Both the position numbers and the translations under genes were made by a program. This document shows positions 2,534 through 15,411 of a DNA stretch of 64,000 bases, one piece after another. Below the pieces are notes generated by a model. That model made no database searches. It was given only the letters and a program-made list of their open reading frames with translations, and was not told the DNA's origin. The first letter of the stretch is position 1, and every line of letters begins with the position of its first letter. Source of the stretch: Candidatus Kuenenia stuttgartensis (GTDB lineage: Bacteria; Planctomycetota; Planctomycetia; Pirellulales; UBA1268); the NCBI GenBank assembly GCA_945891385.1, contig CAMDDJ010000005.1, positions 5,819 to 69,818 of the forward strand, in the 5' to 3' direction.

Positions 2534-4123
2534 GTGGAAACCAAGCAGACGGCGGCAGGACCCGATTCGCTCCCGGCGATCGAGGTCTACAGCACCCTTT
2601 CCCGCACGAAAGGCCCGCTGGACACCGTGACGCCGGGCCACGTCGGGATGTATCTCTGCGGACCGACCGTCTACAAGCCCAGCCACATCGGCCACATGGT
2701 GGGCCCGGTGATCTTCGACACCGTCAAGCGGCACCTCGTCTACTCCGGGTATGGCGTCACCTGGGTGGTCAACATCACCGACGTCGACGACAAGATCATC
2801 GCCGAGAGCACGACCCGCGGCACGACGATGGCCGCGCTGGCCGAGGAAATGACGGCCGATTACCTGGCCAACCTCGCCTGCCTCGGTGTGACCGGCATCG
2901 ACGAGATGCCCAAGGCCACCGACCACATCGGCACGATCATCGCCTTCATCGAAGGCTTGGTGGCCAAGGGCTGCGCCTATGCGAGCGACGGCGACGTCTA
3001 CTTCGACGTCACCCGCGATACCGACTACGGCAAGCTCACCAACCGGTCCGTCGAGCAGATGCAGGGCGAAGGCGGCTCGACCGCCGATCGGAAGCGGTCT
3101 GCGGCCGATTTCGCCCTCTGGAAGCAGGCCAAGCCGGGCGAGCCCTCCTGGGAGAGCCCCTGGGGTCCAGGCCGCCCCGGCTGGCACATCGAATGCTCGG
3201 CGATGAGCAAGGCGATTCTCGGCGAGACCTTCGACATCCACGGCGGGGGGCTCGACCTCGTCTTTCCCCACCACGAGAACGAGATCGCCCAGAGCGAGTC
3301 GCTCCACGACCGGCCGATGGCGCGGGTCTGGATGCACAATGGCCTGATGCAGGCCGGCGGCGCCGCCGGGAAGGTGGGCGGCCGTCCGCGGGAAGCCGGC
3401 CAGCCCGACGAGGCAGCCGACGCGGCGGCCCAGGCCGCCACCAAGATCTCGAAATCCACCGGCGCCGAGCCGTTCAAAACCCTCCTGGCTCGGCATCGTC
3501 CCGAGGCGATCCGCCTGCTCCTCATCTCCACCCACTACCGCAGCCCGATCCATTTCGGCGAGGAGCCGCTGCGGGAGAGCGCGAAGGCGATGGAGGCTTT
3601 CGAGCGGCTCTTTGCCCGGTTCGCCCGGATCGGCGGCAAGGCCTTCCACTCGCTGCCCGGCCGGACCCGGAAGGCCGGCGATGCCGCGGTCGCTGCGGCC
3701 GGCCCGGAGGCGGTCCAACTGCGGGCCAAGTTCCTGGCCGCGATGGACGACGACTTCAACACCGCGATCGCCGTGGCCGCCCTGTTCGACTTCGTCCGCA
3801 CGGTCAACAAGTACATCGATCAGCACGCTCTGGAGACGAAGAAGCCTCCGGCCGAACTCGCGGGCCTCGAAGCCCGGATGCTCGTGCTCCGTGAGCTCAC
3901 CGGCGTGCTCGGCCTGTTTCTCGAACCGCCCGCGGCCGAAACCGGGGGCGAGGCCGACGAGGGCCTCGTGGGCAAGCTCATGGAGCTCGTCATCGAGATC
4001 CGGGCCAACGCCCGCGCGAACAAGGATTTCGCCACGGCCGACCTGGTCCGCAACCGACTGGGTGAGGCCGGCGTCGTGCTGGAAGACCGCCCCGACGGCA
4101 CCGGCTGGTCACGCAAGCCGTGA
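2534..4123 (+). CDS. cysS: cysteine--tRNA ligase
   Basis: Class I aaRS HIGH-type motif (PSHIGHM), WHIECS zinc site and a KMSKS variant (KISKS). In-frame GTG at 2534 follows GAGGAG. The upstream part of the track ORF is Arg/Pro-rich and overlaps ispF. Confidence 0.88.
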   Translation: METKQTAAGPDSLPAIEVYSTLSRTKGPLDTVTPGHVGMYLCGPTVYKPSHIGHMVGPVIFDTVKRHLVYSGYGVTWVVNITDVDDKIIAESTTRGTTMAALAEEMTADYLANLACLGVTGIDEMPKATDHIGTIIAFIEGLVAKGCAYASDGDVYFDVTRDTDYGKLTNRSVEQMQGEGGSTADRKRSAADFALWKQAKPGEPSWESPWGPGRPGWHIECSAMSKAILGETFDIHGGGLDLVFPHHENEIAQSESLHDRPMARVWMHNGLMQAGGAAGKVGGRPREAGQPDEAADAAAQAATKISKSTGAEPFKTLLARHRPEAIRLLLISTHYRSPIHFGEEPLRESAKAMEAFERLFARFARIGGKAFHSLPGRTRKAGDAAVAAAGPEAVQLRAKFLAAMDDDFNTAIAVAALFDFVRTVNKYIDQHALETKKPPAELAGLEARMLVLRELTGVLGLFLEPPAAETGGEADEGLVGKLMELVIEIRANARANKDFATADLVRNRLGEAGVVLEDRPDGTGWSRKP

Positions 4124-5173
4124 ACGACGGCGGGCGATCAGCCAGGTTGCCATGACTGCCGCCGCGCCGCCCAGGCCGAGCGCAGGCTCGGGCACGACGG
4201 AGAGGGCATAAAGATCCTGATTCAGCCCGCCGCCGTTGTCTGAAATCAACAGCAGACTCCGCGAGCCATCGGCAAGCACGGGCCCGTAGCTCATGCCCTC
4301 GAAGTTCGACAAGCCGAATGACCGCTCCCAGAGCAGGGTCTTGGCGAGGGGCGTGAAGCCCCCGGCGTCGATCGTGGGCAGCGCCGAGACATCGCTGCCG
4401 CTGGTCGTATCCACCAGGTAGAGGCGGGAGCGAAACTGGGGCACGACGGCCCCACCGAGCTCCCGCTCCAGCACCAGCAGCTCCGTCTCGGTCCAGGGCA
4501 GGATGTCGACCACGCCGCTCCGCTCGGCCGAGATGAAGGGGTTCAGGGCGGTGATCGGATCGGTGCGGTAGCCCCACTGCCCCGCGGTCGTGAGCGACTC
4601 GTCGAATCGCTGAATCCGCACCCAGCTGCCGGCGGTCGTCGTCGCGAGCGGGCCATCGGGCGCGAGGGCTTCCTCGTTGGCCGTCCAGAGACCGCCGGCG
4701 CCGAAGGCCAGCGACTCGAGCCCCATGTTGCTCTGCACGTTCGCCGCCGCGTAGATCGCCGGCACGCCCACGCTGCCGACGAGACCGCCGGTTGAAAGAC
4801 TGAATTCGTTGATCGTGGAGGCGACCTCGTCGGAGACGAAGACGGTGCCCGACGCGGCCCGGTAGGCGATGCCCTCGGAATCGGTGCCGAGCCCCGGGGC
4901 CGCGATGCCGCCGGTGACCGCCGCCGACCCGATCCAGCCGGTCGCCGGATCGATGCTCAGCGAAAGGGTCCAGATCGTCGCCGCAGCGTTGTCGCCGACG
5001 GCGTGGTAGGTCGAGCCACCGACGTGCGTGATGCCGCTGAGTTCCGCGGCGGCCGTCGCCCCGGAGGAAAGCGACACGCTCCCCTGCCCCGGGTCGATCA
5101 CCGCAGGCTGGCCGCTGGCGACCGCCGCCGCCAGGCCCCAGCACCCGAGCGTGATCACGATTGCCCGCCTCAT
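4109..5173 (-). CDS. secreted phytase-like (esterase-like activity of phytase family) protein with PEP-CTERM anchor
   Basis: N-terminal signal peptide (MRRAIVITLGCWGLAAAVASG). The C-terminus is VPEP + hydrophobic helix + RRRSR, the PEP-CTERM architecture. The body resembles phytase-like beta-propeller proteins. The family call is by recollection only. Confidence 0.65.
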   Translation of the reverse strand: MRRAIVITLGCWGLAAAVASGQPAVIDPGQGSVSLSSGATAAAELSGITHVGGSTYHAVGDNAAATIWTLSLSIDPATGWIGSAAVTGGIAAPGLGTDSEGIAYRAASGTVFVSDEVASTINEFSLSTGGLVGSVGVPAIYAAANVQSNMGLESLAFGAGGLWTANEEALAPDGPLATTTAGSWVRIQRFDESLTTAGQWGYRTDPITALNPFISAERSGVVDILPWTETELLVLERELGGAVVPQFRSRLYLVDTTSGSDVSALPTIDAGGFTPLAKTLLWERSFGLSNFEGMSYGPVLADGSRSLLLISDNGGGLNQDLYALSVVPEPALGLGGAAAVMATWLIARRRSRLA

Positions 5174-5204
5174 CGCCCCATCTCCCTGCCGGCCACTCTC
5201 GATT

Positions 5205-7133
<1,929 letters not shown>

Positions 7134-7222
7134 CCATCGAACCGCTGCCAGACGAGTCATTTCCAAATGGCCCTTGGGGGCCGGGGCCCGAACTGCTCGC
7201 GTCGTTCGCCCAGTTTCCCGGC

Positions 7223-7250
7223 TTGCATCATTTCTACGTTTTCGTAGAGT
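7223..7250 (+). promoter_or_regulatory. putative sigma70-type promoter with palindromic operator for the TA operon
   Basis: TTGCAT (7223-7228), a 16-nt spacer, then TAGAGT (7245-7250), 44 nt before the antitoxin ATG. The perfect palindrome CTACG-TTTT-CGTAG (7234-7247) overlaps the spacer and -10. Confidence 0.4.
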
Positions 7251-7293
7251 TATGGATCGGGCTTTCAACGCTTCGGCGAGGTGGGAGATACCC

Positions 7294-7566
7294 ATGGCAG
7301 TTGACGTGTCACAAGTTTCCGCCGTGATCGCCGACACGACTCGCGAGCGGCTCGAGCGATTCGCCAAACAGCACGGGGTCAAGAAGTCCCACCTGATCGA
7401 AACAGCCATCCTGCATCATCTGGCCGCGCTCGAGGAGCTGCCAGCCGACGTCGTGGTGCCCCCGGCGCTCGTGCTTTCTCGCGAGGAGGGGGCTGATCTG
7501 ATCCGCCGCATCGAGCGGCCGGCGCCGCCAACACCGGCACTGAAGGCCCTGTTCGATGCAGATTGA
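7294..7566 (+). CDS. ribbon-helix-helix (CopG/Arc-like) antitoxin
   Basis: 90 aa. GGGAG lies 6 nt before the ATG at 7294. The N-terminal RHH-like segment is VIADTTRERLERFAKQHGVKKSHLIETAILHHL. It overlaps the GNAT gene by 11 nt. Confidence 0.7.
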   Translation: MAVDVSQVSAVIADTTRERLERFAKQHGVKKSHLIETAILHHLAALEELPADVVVPPALVLSREEGADLIRRIERPAPPTPALKALFDAD

Positions 7567-8074
7567 GATCCGGCCGCTGCGGCTGGAGGACGAGCGGTCT
7601 TCGTTCTCGTCCGGTGACATCGAACTCGATCGCTTCTTTCGCAACTACGCAGGCCTGAACCAGTTTCGTCTCCATCTGGGCACGACCTACGTAGCTGTCG
7701 GCGACGGCACCGTCGTGGGCTATGCAACGGTCGCGCCGGGATCGATCGCGATCAGTCAACTGCCACGATCGGAGCGGCGGCGTTTGCCGGCCTACCCGCT
7801 GCCGATCCTGCGTCTGGCACGGCTCGCTGTCGCCACAACTCACCAAGGCCGCGGCATCGGCTCACGGCTCGTACGATTCTCGCTGGAGCTTGCCCGTGAG
7901 ATGGCGACGCGGTTCGGCTGCATCGGCGTCGTTGTCGATGCAAAGCCCGCCGCGGTGGCCTTTTACGTGCGCCTCGGGTTCGCGGGCCTGGTGGTCGAGG
8001 CTGGCGAACTGCCCAGCCGACCTCGGCCGCAGGTCTTGTTTCTGCCAATCGGGTCGATTCCCCCCCGCCGGTGA
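7556..8074 (+). CDS. GNAT-family N-acetyltransferase toxin (TacT/AtaT/KacT-like)
   Basis: 172 aa with acetyl-CoA motif HQGRGIGSRL. Its size and its overlap with an upstream RHH gene match type II GNAT/RHH TA modules. Confidence 0.72.
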   Translation: MQIEIRPLRLEDERSSFSSGDIELDRFFRNYAGLNQFRLHLGTTYVAVGDGTVVGYATVAPGSIAISQLPRSERRRLPAYPLPILRLARLAVATTHQGRGIGSRLVRFSLELAREMATRFGCIGVVVDAKPAAVAFYVRLGFAGLVVEAGELPSRPRPQVLFLPIGSIPPRR

Positions 8075-8082
8075 CGACCGAC

Positions 8083-8285
8083 CCGCGTCGCCGGGGCCGC
8101 GGAAGTGCCAGAGGCCGAGCGAGCCTTTGAACTCAGAGCGTCTTGAGGTACTCGAGCAGGGCCCGCTTCTGGTCGTCGTCGAGCACGTCGGCGAAGTCGT
8201 GGCCGGCGGCGCTCTTCCCGGGGCGACGCGTGTCGAAATACCGACGCCGCTCCGCAGGCCGTAGCCTGCCCTCGGGCAGGTCGGC
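8083..8285 (-). repeat. copy B of the cytochrome c gene 3' end plus 50 nt of downstream sequence
   Basis: ~203-bp direct repeat of 12511-12713. The TGA is retained (8133-8135). Most differences from copy C are synonymous third-position changes. Confidence 0.85.
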
Positions 8286-8306
8286 TCGACTCAACTAGCT
8301 ACCCGA

Positions 8307-11300
8307 TCAAGACCAGCCGAGAGCTTTGAACTGTTGTAAGAACAACTTCGTCGCTTCCCCGGGCCGCCCACCGTTGTTGGCAAAGGGCACCTCATCGACC
8401 ACCTCGATCCTCGGCAGGTCAGTGCCGTATTTCTCGTTGAAGGCCTTGAGGTCGTCGAGTCTTTCCTCAAGGTCTGCGTCATTTATATCGCCAATTGCTT
8501 CGAAAATGCTCTCGTCCGTGAGGACACTTTCAGCAAAGGACGATCCGTCGGCGGCAGCTACGGACACGGAATCGACGGTGGCGTCGACGACTTCGGCGCC
8601 AGCAATGGCGGCGTCTCCCGTGCCCAAGGTCAGGATTGAGACTCCAACGAGGGCGATAGCTTCGCCAGCGATTTCCTCGAGAGCGACGGCCCAGGGTGGC
8701 TGATCGTTGATTTCATTTTGCGTCATCAGCTTGAACTGGGCGCCTGCAGGCGTGCTGCCGCTTGCCGCCGGAAGACCTTGCCCGCTCGGGGACGATAGGT
8801 AGCCGTTGTATCCCAGACCTGCGTTCTGGATCGTCATCGTCCAGTGTTGGCCGGCCCTCATCTGTGAGTTAAACAACGGCGTGATTTGGGCTGCCCAATA
8901 CATGCTGCTGCCCGAGCCATCAGCCCAGTCCGCGAGGTAGGTGCTGCAGTCTTCACCGACGCACGTGCCGTCGGCCTTCTGCACGGAGAACGTCATCTGG
9001 CTCGAACTGTCCGGTGCGATGTAGGCGATGGTCGTCTGCTGCCCCATCGGCACCGTCACCTGCTTTGTCGTGTAGGTAGGCGGTGTCGTGGTCGATCCCT
9101 TCTCCGGCTGGTCGGCGAAGTAGAACGTCAGCGGCCCGCCACCCGCACCGATGTTCGACTCGTTCACGATCGTGAGCGCCATCAGATCGACGCCCGTCAG
9201 GTGAACGGTGCCGAGCACGAGGGACTCGAACCCCTGGTCGAGCGCGATCACCGGGGCCTTGGACACGACGGCGCTCAGGATGCCGATGTTTTGGTTGTTC
9301 GGCAGCGTGAAGCTCGCCAACTGCTTGCCGTGGAGATTGCGGCAATAACCAAAAATGTGGGCCGGCGTGGTGACCAGGTCGCCCTGCTGATTGATCCGTT
9401 CGGGCTCCGTCTTGAGATTCAGCTCGCCAACAAAAGGCCGAGGCGTCGGCACCGGCGGGGCTATTTCGACGTAGGTGAGGTCATAAGCCATCGTGAGCGG
9501 GTCGGTGTTTTCCCAAAAATACTTGCCGCCGTTCGTGGTGCCAGAGAGCACAGGCATGCTCTCATTCCACTGCTCCTCCGGTGTCAAGGCATCCTTCGCA
9601 CGGGACCACGCGCCTGCGGAGGCAACATAGATGCCGTTGTATTGCTCGTAGACTTGGTTCTTCACCAGCACGCGATCACCCTCGGCCAGTGTCACGCCGT
9701 CGATCGTTTGGAGACCTGCAAATATCTCGGGAGTGAGATACAGGTTGGTGTTTTGCACAGGCGCGGTGGTGGCAACTCTCACCGGCATTTTTTCATTGTC
9801 CCCGGGAGCTATCGTGTAAACGGGCGGCCAGGGCGGATTTGACGACTGCGGCGGGCCGTCGCTCGCCCAGTCGTGGAACGACTGAGTCCACGTCTCCGTG
9901 GTGCCGTCGGTGAAGTTCAGCGTGATGGTCTGCGACAGCTGGTCGCCATTGGATGCCGCGCCGGCCAGGTAGAGATAGTCCGACTTGTCGGCATCGACGC
10001 TGACTTGGATCGTCTGGCCCTGGGCCTGGACGAAGTTCAGGGGGTTGTTCGTTGCGCTATTTCCACCGCCCCCAACTTGGCTCAACGCCGTGGGGATGGG
10101 GCCGATGGGGAACGAGATGCCATTGTAGATGATGGGCGTGCCGGGAATGGGTTCGCTCGTAGCCGAGCCGGTGTAGTCTGAGTTGTAGTAATTGCCGTTC
10201 CGGTCGAAGCCCTGGCTGTTTGGTGCCTGCCACGGCGGCGTCGTGATGCCAAACGCATTGAAGCTGCTCGAAAGGTCGATCGGCGTCGAGATCGGCGTCG
10301 CTGTTGATGAGGTCACTCCGACGGAGGGCGTGGCCGGCTGCGTCTGATACTCCAGCCGCACGCGCACGCTGTTCATGCCATATGGCACGGGATACTTGTG
10401 CGAGAAGCTTCCGTCCGCAGCGACCGGGATTCGGGCCTCTTGGAACCACGGGCCCAGTGAACCGTCCTGTAGGTTCTGGGCTTTTTCCACCACGATCGTG
10501 GCCCCAGCACGGACGCTCGCATCCACCTTCCCGGCGAACCGGAGCATCTCCCCAGCCTGGAAATGGGCCCGGAGTTGGTCGGGCTGGACCTCGCCGTTCA
10601 CGGTGCCGGGGAACAGATGGCTCGCGTAGATCGGATTGTCCTTGAGGTCTGCACGTTGCTTGGGGGTGAGCTTGCTCGTGTCAGACGAGATGATCATCGG
10701 GGTACCGGCGGGGAGGCCCTGCTCCGCTTCGATGGCGTCCGGAACGGCGTCCACCTGCAGATACACGAGACCCGCATGGCTGTCGCCGAGTGGGAGGCTC
10801 TTTGTGAACTGCTTCTGGGTGAGGCTGTTTGCGAGCTGCGCACGGGCTTTTGCTCCAGGATCCATAAAGGAGGCGCTGCTCCTGATGGTAAAATCGAGCT
10901 TGTTTGCAAAATCCGCCACTGTTGCCAAATCGTAGGAGCGAGCCTCACCGGCACCGGTCTTGGTAGCACCCCAGATTCTGGCGCTGCTGACCACTCCACC
11001 TTCGACGCTCGAGACTCCGTGCACGGTGGCCGGCACGTTGTAGACAAACGTCTTGCCGTCCTCGCGGGTCAGCTCGATCGTGTACCGGGTGCTCCGGCAG
11101 CCGCACCCATCCGTCGGTGCGCCCCAGGTGATCTTGGATCCCACGCCCGCTGTGTAGTCGATCGAGGGGCTCACGAGCCGGCCCGGCACCGCGCCCACCT
11201 CCGGGGTCGGGGCGATCGGGCCGCCAGCGGTGTCCAGGGGGCTCAGGGTGAACGCCGCAGCCATACCGACGTCGCCGCGGGCAGGCGTCCACCGGACAAC

Positions 11301-12323
11301 GTCGTTGAACGCGATCTTGCGAATCGCGGGAACCTTCTGGAGCGAGGCCGGGTCCGTACCCGTCACGGCTCTCGCCGGAACCGTCACCCAGGCATTCTTG
11401 GCCGGCACCCACTTCTGCAGGGTGCCCCGGAGCACCTGCGTCACAGTGAAGCCCTGCGATCCTTGACCGAGGAGATGCGCCGCCGTCAGTTCGATGGTCT
11501 GCCCGCCCGTAGCGTCGAGCATCACCGTCCGCGGACCGTTGACCGTGACCTGGAGGCTCGTCGGCTCGCTTTCAAGCCCGGCCAGGTTCTCGACCACCAC
11601 CGTGACATCGTGCACGCCGTTGGCAAGCTTCGGCGACTGGAGCAACCAGGCGCCGGTCTTGGCATCGCTCCTGACCCGACCCACCGGCACGTCGTCGATC
11701 GAGATGTTCACGAACCGATTGGGCTGCGCGACCCCGCGGAACCAGGGAGTGGCGTACGTCGTCTGGCCATCGCCCTTCATGCCGGTATCCGACAGAGCTC
11801 CCAGGACGAGCGTGGAAGGGGTCGGCGGCGTGGTCACGACCGTGAAGGTGAGCTCCTTGGAGAGTGCTCCAAAGCTCTTTCCAAACGTGCCCGAGGCGGC
11901 GACCGGACGGACGTTGATCGTGTGCTTGCCGGCAGCGAGGGCGGACTCGGCGGGCACCGTGTAGGTCCACTGACCATTAGTCACTGGCAGCGTAGCAACC
12001 CGCACTCCATCGATGCGGAGCCGAACCTGGCTCACGCCGCCCTGCACGCTGCCCGAAAACGCGGGGGTGCGATCGTACGTCAGGTTGTCGACCATCGAAG
12101 TCCCGGTGTCGCTCTCATCCGCGAGGTCGGCGATTCCCGCACGCATGCCGGCGTCGAACATCGTCCGCGACTCGAGCCGCTCGATCCGACACCTCGCGCG
12201 GGATGCCTTGCGGCGGCCGGAGCGCTGCGGCCCCGTGCCCGACAGCCAGTGACGCACTGCGATCAGGGCGGGAGAATCCAAGGTGATTCGCATCATGGCA
12301 GCAGGTCCTTCAAAGGGTTCCAA
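8307..12323 (-). CDS. large secreted mosaic surface protein (Ig-like repeats, carbohydrate-enzyme-type beta-sandwich-like module, tail-fibre-like module)
   Basis: 1338-aa uninterrupted ORF in a lower-GC block. It has an N-terminal RIERLESRTMF motif like the LEDR-type leader of large planctomycete secreted proteins. Two SDTG...D..T.D.TP.F.G Ig-like modules lie at aa ~68-262. See the findings. The start may be the Met pair at 12296. Confidence 0.8.
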   Translation of the reverse strand: MEPFEGPAAMMRITLDSPALIAVRHWLSGTGPQRSGRRKASRARCRIERLESRTMFDAGMRAGIADLADESDTGTSMVDNLTYDRTPAFSGSVQGGVSQVRLRIDGVRVATLPVTNGQWTYTVPAESALAAGKHTINVRPVAASGTFGKSFGALSKELTFTVVTTPPTPSTLVLGALSDTGMKGDGQTTYATPWFRGVAQPNRFVNISIDDVPVGRVRSDAKTGAWLLQSPKLANGVHDVTVVVENLAGLESEPTSLQVTVNGPRTVMLDATGGQTIELTAAHLLGQGSQGFTVTQVLRGTLQKWVPAKNAWVTVPARAVTGTDPASLQKVPAIRKIAFNDVVRWTPARGDVGMAAAFTLSPLDTAGGPIAPTPEVGAVPGRLVSPSIDYTAGVGSKITWGAPTDGCGCRSTRYTIELTREDGKTFVYNVPATVHGVSSVEGGVVSSARIWGATKTGAGEARSYDLATVADFANKLDFTIRSSASFMDPGAKARAQLANSLTQKQFTKSLPLGDSHAGLVYLQVDAVPDAIEAEQGLPAGTPMIISSDTSKLTPKQRADLKDNPIYASHLFPGTVNGEVQPDQLRAHFQAGEMLRFAGKVDASVRAGATIVVEKAQNLQDGSLGPWFQEARIPVAADGSFSHKYPVPYGMNSVRVRLEYQTQPATPSVGVTSSTATPISTPIDLSSSFNAFGITTPPWQAPNSQGFDRNGNYYNSDYTGSATSEPIPGTPIIYNGISFPIGPIPTALSQVGGGGNSATNNPLNFVQAQGQTIQVSVDADKSDYLYLAGAASNGDQLSQTITLNFTDGTTETWTQSFHDWASDGPPQSSNPPWPPVYTIAPGDNEKMPVRVATTAPVQNTNLYLTPEIFAGLQTIDGVTLAEGDRVLVKNQVYEQYNGIYVASAGAWSRAKDALTPEEQWNESMPVLSGTTNGGKYFWENTDPLTMAYDLTYVEIAPPVPTPRPFVGELNLKTEPERINQQGDLVTTPAHIFGYCRNLHGKQLASFTLPNNQNIGILSAVVSKAPVIALDQGFESLVLGTVHLTGVDLMALTIVNESNIGAGGGPLTFYFADQPEKGSTTTPPTYTTKQVTVPMGQQTTIAYIAPDSSSQMTFSVQKADGTCVGEDCSTYLADWADGSGSSMYWAAQITPLFNSQMRAGQHWTMTIQNAGLGYNGYLSSPSGQGLPAASGSTPAGAQFKLMTQNEINDQPPWAVALEEIAGEAIALVGVSILTLGTGDAAIAGAEVVDATVDSVSVAAADGSSFAESVLTDESIFEAIGDINDADLEERLDDLKAFNEKYGTDLPRIEVVDEVPFANNGGRPGEATKLFLQQFKALGWS

Positions 12324-12510
12324 CGCATCGAGTGCAGAGGCTTAGGGACGGGGCCCGCGGAGCGTGCTCGCCCAAGCAGATTGCCCGAAAGAGTAGCATT
12401 GCGAGGTATTGGCCGCAACATTTTGGTCAAAGCGTGAGAAGGTTGGGGCAAACAAACCCGTTCCGTGCCCGATGACCGGCATGACCGGCACAGCCGCTAC
12501 GGCCGTTAAG

Positions 12511-12713
12511 CCGCGTCGCCAGGGCCGCGGAAGTGCCAGAGGCCGAGCGGACCTTTGAACTCAGAGCGTCTTGAGGTACTCGAGCAGGGCTTGCTTCTGG
12601 TCGTCGTCGAGCACGTCGGCAAAGTCGTGGCCGGCGGCGCTCTTCCCGGGGCGACGGGTGTCGAAATACCGCCGCCGCTCCGCAGGCCGCAGCCTGCCCT
12701 CGGGCAGGTCGGC
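12511..12713 (-). repeat. copy C: the functional 3' end of the cytochrome c gene plus 50 nt downstream
   Basis: Direct repeat of 8083-8285 and, for the coding part, of 6703-6846. It is contiguous with the intact gene at 12561-13979. Confidence 0.85.
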
Positions 12714-13979
12714 CCGCTCCTCGACCTCGAGGCCGACCCGAGCCTCGTCATAGCCGGTCGGCGTCCGCCGCCACACCGTCGGCCGCGCGGCCGGATTGAG
12801 CACGTGCCAGAGGGTGGGCACGGAGCCGTTGTGGAAGTAGGGCGCACTGGCCCAGATGCCGTCGAGCGGCGGGGCTACATAGCCCCGGGGAGCCTCGCGG
12901 TCGCGGAGCCCGTCGGCTTCAGCGTCGGCCCCAGAGTGGCCAAACCAGCTGTCGTTGAGCGCCCGCCGGTCGGCCGCCGAGAGCGAATCGAGCCGCACGC
13001 GGTCGGTGCCCACCGCCTCGATCGGCACGAGCCGCTCGGGATAGTGCCCGTCACCGCCGTAGCTGCCGTGGCACTCGGCGCAGTGGTTCACGAAAACAGC
13101 CTCCCCGGCCGCGGCGAGCGTGTGGTCGAGCGGGCCGGACCAGGCGGGCGGCTCGAGCGCGGCGATCCAGGCCTCGATCTCCCGAAACTCGTCTTCCCAC
13201 TCCCGAAACCGCTCCGGCCCGTTCTCCTTGACGAGCAGAAACTGCATCAACGGCCGGTGCCCCTGGGCAGCAAAGCCGTCGATATAGAGACTCTTCCGCT
13301 TGGAATAATGCCACCAGGGCGGCGCATCCATGTCGTGATGAACGAGGTCGAATCGCGGCGGCATCTGGATGATGTTCAGCTCGGCATCGCGGTGCCGCAT
13401 CAACGCGACGCCGAAGATCACGGCATTCGTCGTGCCCACCGTGGTGCCAAGCGGCAACAGGAGCGAGCCGAGATCCATGTGGCCAAACGCTTTCCGTTGC
13501 CGCACCTTGACCGCCCGCACCTCTTCCGTGAGCGTCTCGAGGGCGTAATTGGAGTTGGGCAATCCCGGGATCATCCGGCCACCGACCTGGCCCTGGTGGC
13601 AGGCGAGGCAGCTCATCGTCCAGCGACCGGCCTCATCGACCACATACTGGAGCGACCGGGCCGGATCCTCGGGATCGGGCAACAGCCCGTATCGCTCCAT
13701 CGCCATCCGCCGCCGCTCGGCCAGGCTGGCCCCTTCCGCCTGCGATTTGAGCGGCTCTTCCCAGGTGGTCCAGAGTTCGTCGAACACCTCCTGGTCGAAG
13801 TCGGAGGGCAGGTAGGCCCGCTGGCGGAGATGGTCAAAACCACGGGCCGCCGGAGCGGTTTCAGCGAAGGCCGACCCGGCGGCAGCCGCCGCCGTCATGA
13901 TCACGAGCATCATGGCGATCCCGCGGCGGCCGCGGATCTTCATGGGGGCCAATCTGGCTGCTGCGGCGTTCGGGTTCAT
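12561..13979 (-). CDS. di-haem c-type cytochrome (peroxidase/oxidoreductase-like)
   Basis: Two CxxCH motifs (CLACH, CAECH), a signal peptide after MNPNAAAARLAPMKIRGRRGIAMMLVIMTAAAAAGSAFA, and PPLDGIWASAPYFHNGSVPTLWHVL typical of di-haem peroxidase-like proteins. Start at 13979 (alternative 13943). Confidence 0.8.
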   Translation of the reverse strand: MNPNAAAARLAPMKIRGRRGIAMMLVIMTAAAAAGSAFAETAPAARGFDHLRQRAYLPSDFDQEVFDELWTTWEEPLKSQAEGASLAERRRMAMERYGLLPDPEDPARSLQYVVDEAGRWTMSCLACHQGQVGGRMIPGLPNSNYALETLTEEVRAVKVRQRKAFGHMDLGSLLLPLGTTVGTTNAVIFGVALMRHRDAELNIIQMPPRFDLVHHDMDAPPWWHYSKRKSLYIDGFAAQGHRPLMQFLLVKENGPERFREWEDEFREIEAWIAALEPPAWSGPLDHTLAAAGEAVFVNHCAECHGSYGGDGHYPERLVPIEAVGTDRVRLDSLSAADRRALNDSWFGHSGADAEADGLRDREAPRGYVAPPLDGIWASAPYFHNGSVPTLWHVLNPAARPTVWRRTPTGYDEARVGLEVEERADLPEGRLRPAERRRYFDTRRPGKSAAGHDFADVLDDDQKQALLEYLKTL

Positions 13980-14064
13980 GGCATACTTGCGCGGCTGATC
14001 CGGCCCTGCGAACGATTCCGCCCGCAGTATAGGCCTCCCTCCTTTCCTGGCCCGACCTGCCGCC

Positions 14065-15411
14065 ATGCCCTCCGCCAATCCCATCCTGCTGCCCGAACTC
14101 CGTGTGATGCTCGCCGAGGGCGACACCGCCGGGCTCCGCGAGGTGGCCGAGGAACTGCATCCGGCCACGGTGGCGGAGTTTTCCGAGGGGCTCGCCGAAG
14201 CCGAGATCTGGCAGGTCTTCGCCACGATTCCGGTCGAACGGCAGGCGGAGATCTTCCCCTACTACCCGCTCTCCCGGCAGGTCGACCTGCTCAAAGCCGC
14301 CGACCGCCGCCAGCTCGGGCCACTGATCGAGTGGATGGCGGCTGACAACCGCGACGACCTGCTTCGGGAACTCGAGCCCGAGTTCGTCGAGGAGATCCTC
14401 CCACTCGTGGCCAAGGCCGAGCGGCACGACATCCGGCTCCTGCTCTCCTGCCCCGAGGATTCGGCCGGCGCCCTGATGACGACCGAGTATGCCTCGCTGC
14501 CCGCCGACATCACGGCCGGTGAAGCGATCGCCAGACTCCGGTCACAGGCGCCCGACAGCGAATCGATCTACTACATCTATGTGCTCGACCCCGAGCGGCA
14601 TCTGGTGGGGTTCGTGTCGCTCCGCGATCTGATCCTGGCCAAGCCGACCGCTCTGGTGGGCGACCTGATGCAGCGGGACGTGATCAGCGTCCGGATCGAC
14701 GAGCCGCAGGATAAGGTGGTCGAGCAGCTGGCCCGATTCGACTTCATCGCGATTCCGGTCGTCGACGACCAGAACCGGCTCGTGGGCATCGTCACCCACG
14801 ACGACGTGCTCGACGCCGTCCGGCAAGAGGCCACCGACGAGGCCCAGATGAGCGCCGCGATCGCGCCGCTCGGCGAGGGCTACCTCGAGGCGGCCATCAC
14901 CTCGATGACCTGGAAGCGGGGCGTGTGGCTGGCGATCCTGTTCGCCACGGCCGCCGTCACCGCGATGGTGCTCTCGAATTGGGAGCCCGCCGAGTCGCAG
15001 CTCTGGCTGGTGGCCTTCATCCCGCTGGTCGTCGCCAGCGGCGGCAACTCGGGCAATCAGTCGGCCACGCTCGTGATCACGGCACTCTCGACCGGCGACT
15101 GTCGGCTCTCCGACTGGAAGCGAATCCTGAAGCGGGAGTTCGTGCTCGGCCTCGTGCTCGGGGCGATCCTGGCGGTTCCGGGGTATCTGCTCGCGCTCGC
15201 CTATGCGCCGACACCGCTCCAGGCCATCGTGATCCCCGCCACCATTCTCTGCGTGGTGCTCGTGGGCGCGCTCGTCGGCTCCGTGCTCCCCCTGCTCTTC
15301 CGCTCGATCGGCCTCGATCCGGCCCTGATGAGCAATCCCTTCGTGTCGGCGATCGTCGACGTGGTCGGCATTCTCGTCTACATGGGCCTGGCGATGGTGG
15401 TGCTCGGCTGA
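14065..15411 (+). CDS. mgtE: magnesium transporter MgtE
   Basis: 448 aa with an MgtE N-domain, a CBS pair (ERHLVGFVSLRDLI / NRLVGIVTHDDVLD) and a C-terminal 5-TM MgtE channel domain. Confidence 0.9.
   Translation: MPSANPILLPELRVMLAEGDTAGLREVAEELHPATVAEFSEGLAEAEIWQVFATIPVERQAEIFPYYPLSRQVDLLKAADRRQLGPLIEWMAADNRDDLLRELEPEFVEEILPLVAKAERHDIRLLLSCPEDSAGALMTTEYASLPADITAGEAIARLRSQAPDSESIYYIYVLDPERHLVGFVSLRDLILAKPTALVGDLMQRDVISVRIDEPQDKVVEQLARFDFIAIPVVDDQNRLVGIVTHDDVLDAVRQEATDEAQMSAAIAPLGEGYLEAAITSMTWKRGVWLAILFATAAVTAMVLSNWEPAESQLWLVAFIPLVVASGGNSGNQSATLVITALSTGDCRLSDWKRILKREFVLGLVLGAILAVPGYLLALAYAPTPLQAIVIPATILCVVLVGALVGSVLPLLFRSIGLDPALMSNPFVSAIVDVVGILVYMGLAMVVLG

Follow-up and report, generated by a model that had tools for sequence, protein, structure and literature searches.

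A large putative surface-protein gene in a repeat-bounded cassette array between a RoxA-like cytochrome c gene and thiC in a planctomycete genome

The insertion between the cytochrome c gene and thiC

A 64,000-nt stretch of DNA assigned to Candidatus Kuenenia stuttgartensis (GTDB lineage Bacteria; Planctomycetota; Planctomycetia; Pirellulales; UBA1268) was analysed and is referred to here as the window (GenBank assembly GCA_945891385.1, contig CAMDDJ010000005.1, positions 5,819 to 69,818 of the forward strand). The subject of this report is an insertion in the window that carries a large gene, here named BIG, for a predicted cell-surface protein, together with a putative toxin-antitoxin (TA) pair and three copies of a direct repeat. 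The genome is a 3.77-Mb metagenome-assembled genome (MAG) in 150 contigs, and the contig that contains the window (C5) is 89.8 kb long. All coordinates without a contig name are window positions.

The insertion is flanked by two core genes on the minus strand. On one side lies a gene for a RoxA-like di-haem cytochrome c (12561..13958), which was recognized by Pfam RoxA-like_Cyt-c and NCBIfam models and found in 21 of the 31 relatives searched. On the other side lies thiC (5205..6563; Pfam E 5e-192). In genomes of the same genus, MgtE, cytochrome c and thiC follow one another in this order, the cytochrome c and thiC genes being 53-150 nt apart. Among the species representatives that carry this cytochrome, thiC starts 41-650 nt past the cytochrome c gene in about 60 of 80, and no homologue of BIG or of the GNAT gene described below lies between the two genes in those 60 or so. 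Given this close spacing in the other species, the 5.95 kb found here between the cytochrome stop (12561) and thiC (6563) represents an insertion. A first-pass annotation, made from the letters of the DNA, had regarded the BIG block as accessory, and the empty site in about 60 of 80 related species bears this out.

The thiC gene of relatives begins just 41-150 nt past the cytochrome stop and is preceded by a conserved TGCTACCCT-like motif. In several further species (L174, L186 (G005), L197, L241 and L245), unrelated DNA of 1.8 to more than 3 kb lies between cytochrome c and thiC; thus, the cytochrome c/thiC hotspot extends past the lineage studied here. An Rfam E-value scan of 5000-15000 gave nothing at E<=0.1, and no thiamine pyrophosphate riboswitch was found before thiC (6563-6703).

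Read along the cytochrome c gene, the array consists of the cytochrome body, repeat copy C with a 57-nt element (E57), a 207-nt upstream region and BIG. About 20-25 nt further on are copy B with a second E57, followed by a GNAT gene and an RHH-like gene on the other strand. Behind these come the stub of an IS91-family element with its insertion sequence (IS) end and then copy A, after which the native spacer leads to thiC. Two cassettes make up the inserted array; each starts with its own cytochrome 3' end and E57, and copy A is one more cytochrome 3' end that closes the array.

Repeats, E57 and the toxin-antitoxin cassette

The repeated sequence corresponds to the final ~145 nt of the RoxA-like cytochrome c gene; copies B and C extend past the stop to include E57. 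All three copies are on the minus strand. Copy C (12511-12716) includes the functional cytochrome c 3' end with its stop codon, which makes up the part without E57 (12561..12716). Copy B (8083-8288), about 20-25 nt past the BIG stop, is an orphan cytochrome 3' end of ~149 nt plus E57 (8083-8139). Copy A (6704-6846; 143 nt) is also an orphan 3' end, in which the stop is changed to TGG and E57 is missing; its edge meets the IS91 stub without a gap, and it moves together with the TA cassette. Copies B and C are 95% identical over 206 nt, and copy A matches C at 139 of 143 positions (97%) and B at 96.5%. No further copies occur in the 3.77-Mb genome. The mutual divergence of the three copies (3-4%) is about the same as the divergence from L173, the closest relative, and would fit import from strains of one population.

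The E57 of copy C (12504..12560, minus strand) starts with GTTC right after the cytochrome stop and is the cytochrome-proximal boundary of the BIG cassette. GTTC is one of the GTTC/CTTG targets next to which the ends (oriIS/terIS) of an IS91/ISCR transposon would be expected; E57 itself is not IS sequence. The element is missing from the native cytochrome c/thiC spacers of relatives. A genome collection covering 185,579 species gave no match to E57, and a metagenome collection gave one contig, again from the lineage of L061, the related species described below. Its occurrences, namely two in the genome studied and others in L173 and in the L061/L063 lineage, are confined to this locus. In the window and L061 lineages, the variants of E57 sort by cargo into a BIG type (GGTCCGCTC) and a TA type (GGCTCGCT). 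Two identities proposed for E57 were rejected. Four copies fold no better than shuffled sequences (z -0.25 to +1.57), which disposes of a structured or attC-type site, and alignment of ten transposase 3' ends showed that E57 is not an IS91 end.

The second cassette carries a putative RHH-GNAT toxin-antitoxin pair on the plus strand (7294..8074). The RHH-like gene (7294-7566) codes for 90 amino acids (aa) and overlaps the GNAT acetyltransferase gene (7556-8074; Pfam PF00583, E 5.6e-13) by 11 nt; its RelB-like match of 25.9 bits lies below the cut-off of 50. The unit ends at 8075. The 3' remnant of an IS91-family (Y2) transposase gene, together with the conserved IS end ...GGAAGTGCCATTCGCCGGACTATCCCT, occupies 6847..7071 on the plus strand and was detected by tblastn. 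This stub keeps only transposase aa ~455-498 plus the IS end, and it is 80-85% identical to a full-length transposase on contig L043 that carries Zn_Tnp_IS91 and Y2_Tnp domains. Alignment of the ten 3' ends placed the IS end (...CTATCCYT) at 7071, and the end itself (7045-7071) is located inside the TA cassette.

The TA unit was seen in many contexts at 98-99.8% identity, and the IS91 stub-RHH-GNAT unit (6847-8075) is a mobile module in its own right. This 1.23-kb unit occurs in many short contigs from many samples (loci L254-L266). Its RHH protein is indexed in 57 blocks, and the unit has two kinds of right flank, lying in L266 in an ISL3/PDDEXK neighbourhood.

Cassette order and transfer among strains and species

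The same arrangement was found on contig L253 (50.5 kb) of another public assembly. Over 10,075 nt, this contig and the window differ at five single-nucleotide polymorphisms (SNPs), all outside 6132-14074. In the closest relative, L173 (94.6% nucleotide identity), E57 follows the cytochrome stop, and yet another sequence follows E57. Contig L061 represents a related species, with core genes ~78-92% identical in nucleotide sequence to those of the window, and it has an orthologue of BIG at the same site. Its order is cytochrome, E57, a decayed GNAT gene with transposase fragments, three small genes, E57, upstream region, BIG and thiC; E57 repeats there without a cytochrome-end copy. In L254-L260 and L265, the TA unit is followed by a repeat with E57, the upstream region and BIG. 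These contigs and L061/L063 have the order cytochrome-TA-BIG, as opposed to cytochrome-BIG-TA in the window. Cassette order differs between closely related strains (~95% nucleotide identity), and the cassette-like behaviour anticipated in the first-pass annotation is evident from the same modules standing in opposite order on other contigs.

Contig L254 belongs to the L061 species (97.9% identity), and its core genes are 81-87% identical to those of the window. The L254 TA unit, taken with its cytochrome-end copy, matches that of the window at 99.6% identity, whereas this copy and the cytochrome end native to the L061 species are only 84.5% alike. Since the repeat in L254 matches the window and not the resident cytochrome, it is part of the mobile cassette and did not arise by duplication on the spot. 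The TA cassette moves between species with its cytochrome-end copy. In addition, the junction of copy A with the IS91 stub is identical in at least nine other contigs (L253-L257, L262-L265).

A phytase-like esterase gene with a hydrophobic, Arg-rich C-terminal tag is located at 4109-5173. Four of the five SNPs between the window and L253 cluster inside this gene, at 4358-4405.

The BIG gene and its upstream region

One gene had been described between copies B and C, with a product of 1338 aa counted from a TTG codon, and this open reading frame (ORF) exists in the ORF listing (8307..12323, minus strand). The homologues of BIG all start with MMRI.LDSPALIAVR; hence the true start is the ATG at 12296, and the gene (8307..12296, minus strand) codes for 1329 aa. 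An AAGGA motif lies ~10 nt 5' of this ATG. An identical gene is present on the public contig L253, and a protein look-up returned the exact protein from one contig only.

The upstream region had been given as 187 nt, a figure that is arithmetically correct, and the real intergenic distance from the cytochrome c stop to the BIG ATG is 264 nt. The 207 nt directly before the gene (12297..12503, minus strand) travel with it and are 89% identical to the region 5' of the L061 orthologue. The promoter proposed there, TTGCGG-17-TACTCT, is present in the DNA; it matches only 6 of 12 consensus positions, and a sigma-70 consensus scan of 6400-13000 found no promoter match. A TG precedes the -10 hexamer, which yields an extended -10 form (TGCTACTCT at 12390-12398). 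A 9-mer of the TGCTACTCT type is unique in the window, where 0.13 were expected and 12 of 100 shuffles contained at least one, and it resembles motifs 5' of thiC in relatives. TTGCGG-17-TACTCT with its TG is kept here as a candidate promoter only.

Architecture of the BIG protein

The protein begins with a leader (12144..12296; this and the following segments are encoded on the minus strand) composed of a basic stretch and RIERLESRTMF, a planctomycete LE.R.LL-type motif. The leader lacks a hydrophobic Sec core. The combination of a basic stretch with LE.R.(M/L)(L/F) is shared by at least 12 other large ORFs of the genome (560-5700 aa), which also have it close to the N-terminus; the first-pass annotation had described the leader as planctomycete-style. 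No Pfam match to the leader was found even at E<=10, and this includes PF07595 (Planc_extracel), the planctomycete N-terminal motif. Three relatives carry a classical Sec signal peptide in place of the leader.

Two Big_13 Ig-like domains follow (aa 64-262; 11538..12134), where two Ig-like modules had indeed been predicted. They were matched by PF19077 in two stretches (E 2.7e-24; 86 bits versus a cut-off of 27), the sole Pfam match of the whole protein; a match to Ca_tandemer is weak. The next segment (aa 263-690; 10254..11537) was modelled by AlphaFold2 (AF2) from an alignment of 65 sequences as a chain of Ig-like, FN3-like, mixed alpha/beta and Ig-like domains with a pLDDT of 88. Foldseek searches of the PDB with this chain returned FN3/Ig tandems at E 2e-5 and weaker. 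A phmmer search of PDB sequences with the whole protein found nothing, and single Pfam searches with the leader, the tail, the nested module and the C-terminal domain found nothing meaningful.

The remainder of the protein (aa 680-1338) was modelled with an overall pLDDT of 66, higher in the beta domains. It starts with a predicted beta-sandwich that is split into an N-terminal half (aa 690-830; 9834..10256), supported by an AF2/Foldseek fold match and by recurrence, and a C-terminal half (aa 961-1030; 9234..9443), placed by the model; the two halves are contiguous in paralogues on contig C88. The split sandwich resembles AziU3/U2 (7wuw) with a TM-score of 0.71 on the target and E 2.5e-5. This match is spread over 347 query columns, as expected for a domain interrupted by an insert of ~130 residues. 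The split-sandwich half recurs in 214 representative proteins at E<=1e-3. Its partners in nine scanned proteins include S8 and S53-type proteases, a metallophosphoesterase and the beta-propeller types Vgb-lyase/NHL and Kelch, and the module is an accessory domain of secreted enzymes. The first-pass annotation had compared aa ~688-820 with accessory domains of actinobacterial glycosidases. It was right about a recurrent module; the glycosidase link could not be reproduced, with none among the nine distant module-bearing proteins in Pfam scans and none in a region-restricted word search. The genome also contains a 640-aa ORF at a contig end (C88:10763-12283; L042) with three tandem beta-sandwich modules and no nested insert, which are 34-47% identical to BIG aa 640-822.

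The insert between the two halves contains a module (aa 838-950; 9474..9812) that resembles phage tail-fibre and capsid-decoration proteins and is optional in the family. Matches to PHROG tail-fibre, virion and head-decoration families had E values of 9e-20 to 1e-8, and the BFVD gave 76 matches at E<=1e-3 with 25-36% identity, in agreement with the tail-fibre-like segment noted earlier at aa ~846-950. A similar module occurs, sometimes three times, in giant ORFs (2082-5475 aa) of related genomes (G003:C25, G013:C2 and G017:C45); these copies are 57-62% identical to BIG aa 845-915.

A second predicted beta-sandwich (aa ~1047-1200; 8724..9185; AF2 pLDDT 65-91) is the most conserved part of the family and holds a conserved Cys pair (1121/1126). 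It is followed, after a conserved QPPW, by a hydrophobic, Gly-rich segment of transmembrane type (aa ~1214-1245; 8589..8684), in which the 19-mer at aa 1223-1241 has a Kyte-Doolittle (KD) hydropathy of 1.77 and AF2 places a helix at ~1210-1224. A 19-mer with KD>=1.6 was present within the last 260 aa of 88 of 89 full-length relatives. The acidic C-terminal tail (8310..8588) has 22 D/E versus 7 K/R, is variable in the family and was poorly predicted by AF2. The hydrophobic stretch and acidic tail of the earlier description were thereby recovered.

The BIG family

The family to which BIG belongs comprises more than 130 clusters and has no name. Its members are chiefly from freshwater Pirellulales, with some on Verrucomicrobiota contigs. 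About 100 clusters, at 47-84% identity, align collinearly over the core (aa 10-830 plus 961-1245), and dozens of residues are invariant among members that are 50-84% identical. The nested module is missing in 24 of 79 relatives, among them the same-site L061 orthologue, and the flanks are joined seamlessly there; two changes on the N-core tree, and likewise on the C-core tree, are enough to explain where it is present and absent. Further optional inserts occur after aa 943 and aa 1080, and the N-termini vary among Big_13, FN3, DUF4214 and signal peptide forms. On these alignments, the BIG protein is a member of one coherent, strongly conserved family, and no ad hoc mosaic. The mosaic of the first-pass annotation stands in the sense that the protein is modular; the idea of an ad hoc mix of unrelated parts gives way to one coherent family with optional inserts.

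Recombinant structure of the BIG gene

Separate trees were built for the N-core (aa 263-826) and the C-core (aa 961-1245). The window protein is sister to P0003 in the former (support 97) and to P0004 in the latter (support 99, 98% identity). The nearest relatives of the two cores differ; the stronger mosaicism is allelic and involves three segments, which were defined by sliding nucleotide identity and aligned breakpoints. All three are on the minus strand. Segment 1 (11100..12564) is 89-98% identical to the L061/P0049-type allele and 93-98% identical over 12264-11065, compared with ~78-92% for the flanking core genes. Segment 2 is a patch of ~170 nt (10925..11100) that is near-identical to the L043/P0003-type allele. 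Segment 3 (8365..10945) is 91-99% identical to the P0004-type allele of contigs L047-L050, whose flanking genes are Terrimicrobiaceae-like. Both switches between alleles occur at conserved motifs (DGCGC...STRY and ATKTGAGEARSYD), where the parental representatives share only ~10 and ~21 identical bases. The BIG gene is a recombinant of at least three alleles.

The P0004 block, consisting of the gene with ~520 nt upstream and ~1 kb downstream, is 99.7% identical between L047 and L048. It stands there behind two unrelated left flanks (the first 1.1-1.2 kb), which carry genes for an AAA-type ATPase and an autotransporter beta-barrel. Genes of Terrimicrobiaceae/'Spartobacteria' MAGs match these flank genes at 92% and 97% identity, and the flanks have a GC content of 50-58%. 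No BIG gene was found at the Verrucomicrobiota MAG loci that carry the flank genes, and it is only from the two genes beside it that P0004 can be assigned to this phylum. On this assignment, the P0004 block appears to be mobile in Verrucomicrobiota too, and its similarity to the window suggests that Planctomycetota and Verrucomicrobiota have recently exchanged a gene segment of 2.6 kb.

Base composition and codon usage

Composition was compared with 4-kb windows of the genome (GC 0.676 +/- 0.022). The lower GC of the gene reported in the first-pass annotation is real, at 0.630 for the whole gene (~3rd percentile of genome windows), and is confined to the 3' two-thirds; the 5' third and the upstream region are native-like. 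Codons 1-430 have a GC of 0.675 and a GC3 of 0.844, with a Kullback-Leibler (KL) codon-usage distance at the 9th percentile. Codons 461-1329 have a GC of 0.609 (0.4th percentile), a GC3 of 0.766 (5th percentile) and a KL distance at the 93rd percentile. This contrast in codon usage emerged only after the gene was split at the recombination breakpoint; the whole gene is typical, with KL at the 56th percentile. GC1 is 0.60 (2nd percentile), and part of the low GC stems from amino-acid composition.

A foreign origin had been suggested from composition, and this suggestion was abandoned once windowed GC and codon usage had been run. The 3' parts of the L043, L047 and L061 alleles have the same values as the window (GC 0.61-0.63, GC3 0.77-0.79). 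Since all family members examined share the low-GC 3' part, it is a family trait and no mark of the present insertion, and a 'foreign 3' part' defined by composition was rejected. As a caution on method, GC alone would assign the wrong part of the locus as 'foreign'.

IS91 remnants and recombinase genes

The genome contains at least 20 fragments of IS91-family transposases (26-146 aa) and no intact copy. They were located on C10 (0.7-4.4 kb), C32 (2.0-8.6 kb), C55 (0-9.2 kb), C2 (72.9-73.1 kb), C12, C28 and C134; several precede the same conserved IS end, and they lie in lower-GC3, island-like regions. On contig L043 (1-7296), a BIG homologue with 84% identity is located between an intact IS91-family transposase gene (4940-6544, minus strand) and a 5'-truncated copy that lies ~150 nt 5' of the BIG homologue start. 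In L061, a transposase 3'-end fragment follows BIG.

No tyrosine or serine recombinase gene was found on the 89.8-kb contig C5, where PF00589 gave no match. Seven tyrosine recombinase genes (PF00589) are present in the genome, all on other contigs, and one of them (C2:70853-71362) is ~1.5 kb from an IS91 stub. The small genes beside the BIG homologues in L060 and L061 have no recombinase domains. The regions of lowest GC in the genome (C9:34-44 kb, C2:47-63 kb and C2:129-131 kb; GC 0.51-0.60) have strongly atypical codon usage (KL 0.13-0.23) and are likely recent foreign islands.

A model for the cassette array

From its domains, we infer that BIG is a strain-variable, exported, membrane-anchored cell-surface protein. 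The protein may act as an adhesin or receptor whose beta-sandwich and tail-fibre-like head recognises a ligand outside the cell, a glycan or a surface being the most plausible, and the diversity of BIG may reflect selection acting on the cell surface. The favoured reading of the locus, which we consider probable, is that of a surface-protein gene in an array whose cassettes are shuffled by Campbell-type homologous recombination. Cassettes would leave as circles by homologous recombination between the direct repeats of 143-206 nt, and one Campbell-type crossover with any of the resident repeats would bring a circle back in, either in the same cell or after transfer. No dedicated recombinase would be required. 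IS91-family rolling-circle elements probably made the first junctions, and the TA pair would tend to stabilize and retain the array. A further claim, that the cytochrome c/thiC site is a recombinase-free cassette system, is put forward tentatively and is on present evidence doubtful. In such a system, a handle of ~200 nt on every cassette (a core-gene 3' end plus E57) would allow entry, exit and reordering by homologous recombination alone, within and between species, and would thereby diversify a surface-protein family whose gene segments pass at 95-99% identity even between Planctomycetota and Verrucomicrobiota.

Several observations speak against the favoured reading. Copies A and B have left ends that lie within 9-15 nt of each other, and this would also fit a site-specific process. 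The ~10 nt of identity at the first breakpoint in BIG is short for a RecA-type exchange, with the proviso that the true parents may differ from the representatives compared. Contig L253, which shows the same arrangement, and the MAG may share a source sample. Ligand binding is read from domain types only, ~80% of the length of BIG lies outside any named family, and the sole PDB fold match of the split sandwich is an enzyme subunit pair, AziU3/U2. A C-terminal anchor would put the Ig chain in a distal position and the 'head' close to the membrane, which is odd for an adhesin. Also, for a protein taken to be exported, the leader of BIG lacks a hydrophobic core.

The coincident left ends would be explained by a site-specific tyrosine or serine recombinase acting in trans, with an att site at the left edge of the repeat or in E57 and the cassettes as integrase-less mobilisable units. 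It would suit this explanation that each cassette brings a replacement cytochrome 3' end, that E57 is a constant cytochrome-proximal boundary in three genomes with different sequence beyond it, and that seven tyrosine recombinase genes exist elsewhere in the genome, including the one near the C2 stub. However, there is no such gene in or next to the array or on its contig, and E57 is restricted to this locus, whereas a widely used attachment site would be expected to be commoner. E57 also shows no inverted repeat or structure beyond chance, and the junctions are not uniform, as the L061 E57 lacks a cytochrome-end copy; a recombinase in trans is therefore considered unlikely. Rather less probable still is that IS91 itself drives the shuffling, having captured the cytochrome 3' end by one-ended rolling-circle transposition, with the circles rescued by recombination. 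ISCR/IS91 elements are known to move adjacent DNA (PMC3575428), the stub abuts copy A at the base pair in a junction fixed in at least nine other contigs, transposase genes flank the L043 homologue, intact on one side and truncated on the other, and a transposase 3' end follows BIG in L061. Against this, the fragments of 26-146 aa in the genome include no intact transposase gene, and IS sequence is absent from the BIG cassette. Within the TA cassette, the conserved IS end has an internal position and is not at the boundary, E57 is not an IS end, and the BIG homologues of G001, G002, G010 and G013 have no transposase fragments nearby.

A different concern is that the mosaic gene, the tandem array or both were created in metagenome assembly by joining co-occurring strains or species at shared stretches. 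The genome is a MAG in 150 contigs, the three alleles taken as parents all derive from lake metagenomes, with one lake series supplying two of them, and the exact protein is on record from a single contig. Yet L253 repeats the whole 10-kb region with five SNPs, none of them in the array, and several other assemblies show the copy A/IS91 junction as well as the one that links the TA unit, past the GNAT stop, to E57/copy B. Since they differ by 3-4%, the repeats are no collapsed graph cycle; the sequences that meet at the BIG-stop/copy B junction have no k-mer in common, and the ~10 and ~21 shared bases at the breakpoints are too few for a switch in a k=141 graph. An artefact is accordingly rated as very improbable. 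Least credible of all is an origin of BIG as a phage receptor-binding protein, left by a prophage, tailocin or other tail-like particle, which the first-pass annotation had listed among its options. The match of aa 838-950 to tail-fibre, virion-structural and capsid-decoration families speaks for it, but only ~110 of 1329 residues are phage-like. This module is nested in a cellular domain, is missing in 24 of 79 relatives, the same-site orthologue included, and also occurs in giant ORFs (2000-5500 aa) of related genomes. No phage structural, lysis or integrase genes were found in the array or in five homologous contexts, and core genes flank the site. As a statement about the whole protein, the phage derivation was dropped. 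Campbell-type shuffling by homologous recombination remains the reading preferred here.

Relation to known systems

Duplications of the 3'-CS have been linked to ISCR/IS91 elements, which mobilise neighbouring DNA and leave no target duplications; for ISCR1-linked class 1 integrons, rescue by homologous recombination has been proposed (PMC3575428). The array resembles the ISCR1 complex class 1 integrons in its IS91-family element, in cargo flanked by direct duplications (the 3'-CS there, the cytochrome 3' end here) and in the lack of target-site duplications. Unlike those integrons, it has no integron platform, its transposase is a stub only, its repeats are the end of a core gene, and its cargo is a surface protein and a TA pair in place of resistance genes.

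Phage 21 and e14 insert in the 3' end of icd and carry a replacement end. Similarly, the repeat copy nearest the gene body keeps the cytochrome intact and the displaced copies decay, copy A having lost its stop. In contrast to phage 21 and e14, the cassettes carry no integrase, the identity blocks are 143-206 nt long, and the cassettes are in tandem with an order that varies between strains.

Chromosomal (super)integron cassette arrays are stabilized by toxin-antitoxin cassettes. The present array shares with them single-gene cassettes bounded by a repeat, one TA cassette and a strain-variable order; it differs in having no IntI gene, a repeat that is a gene fragment and no hairpin attC, and two cassettes only.

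At the protein level, BIG can be compared with RTX-type Ig-repeat adhesins of the LapA/MpIBP kind. Like these, it has two Big_13 domains, a weak Ca_tandemer match and strain-variable content, and its Ig/FN3 chain carries beta-sandwich modules of ligand-binding type. Unlike these, it has no RTX/T1SS signals or long tandem repeats, and it has a C-terminal anchor, an acidic tail and a planctomycete leader, with membrane-proximal binding modules and ~80% of its length without a named family. The nested module is similar in sequence and fold over aa ~838-950 to phage tail-fibre/decoration modules (PHROGs 24595, 11518 and 2647; BFVD 'tail fiber' and 'Mtd N-terminal domain-containing'). In BIG, it differs in being a dispensable single copy in a loop of a cellular sandwich, in a membrane-anchored protein and not in a fibre. 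AziU3/U2 of Streptomyces azinomycin biosynthesis (7wuw, 8gs1) is the best PDB fold for the split sandwich (TM-score 0.69-0.71, E 2.5e-5 to 4e-4), a likeness by fold alone at 10% identity with a protein that, unlike BIG, is a cytoplasmic biosynthetic enzyme.

Implications for planctomycete cell surfaces

If homologous recombination alone drives the shuffling at this site, it would be a simple and probably under-recognised route of cassette exchange. The identity of 95-99% over 2.6 kb with a gene on Verrucomicrobiota contigs suggests that segments of surface proteins have been swapped recently between phyla that share lakes. As a conserved, lake-abundant family of the Pirellulales, the BIG proteins would be a good target for work on structure and ligands at the little-known planctomycete surface.

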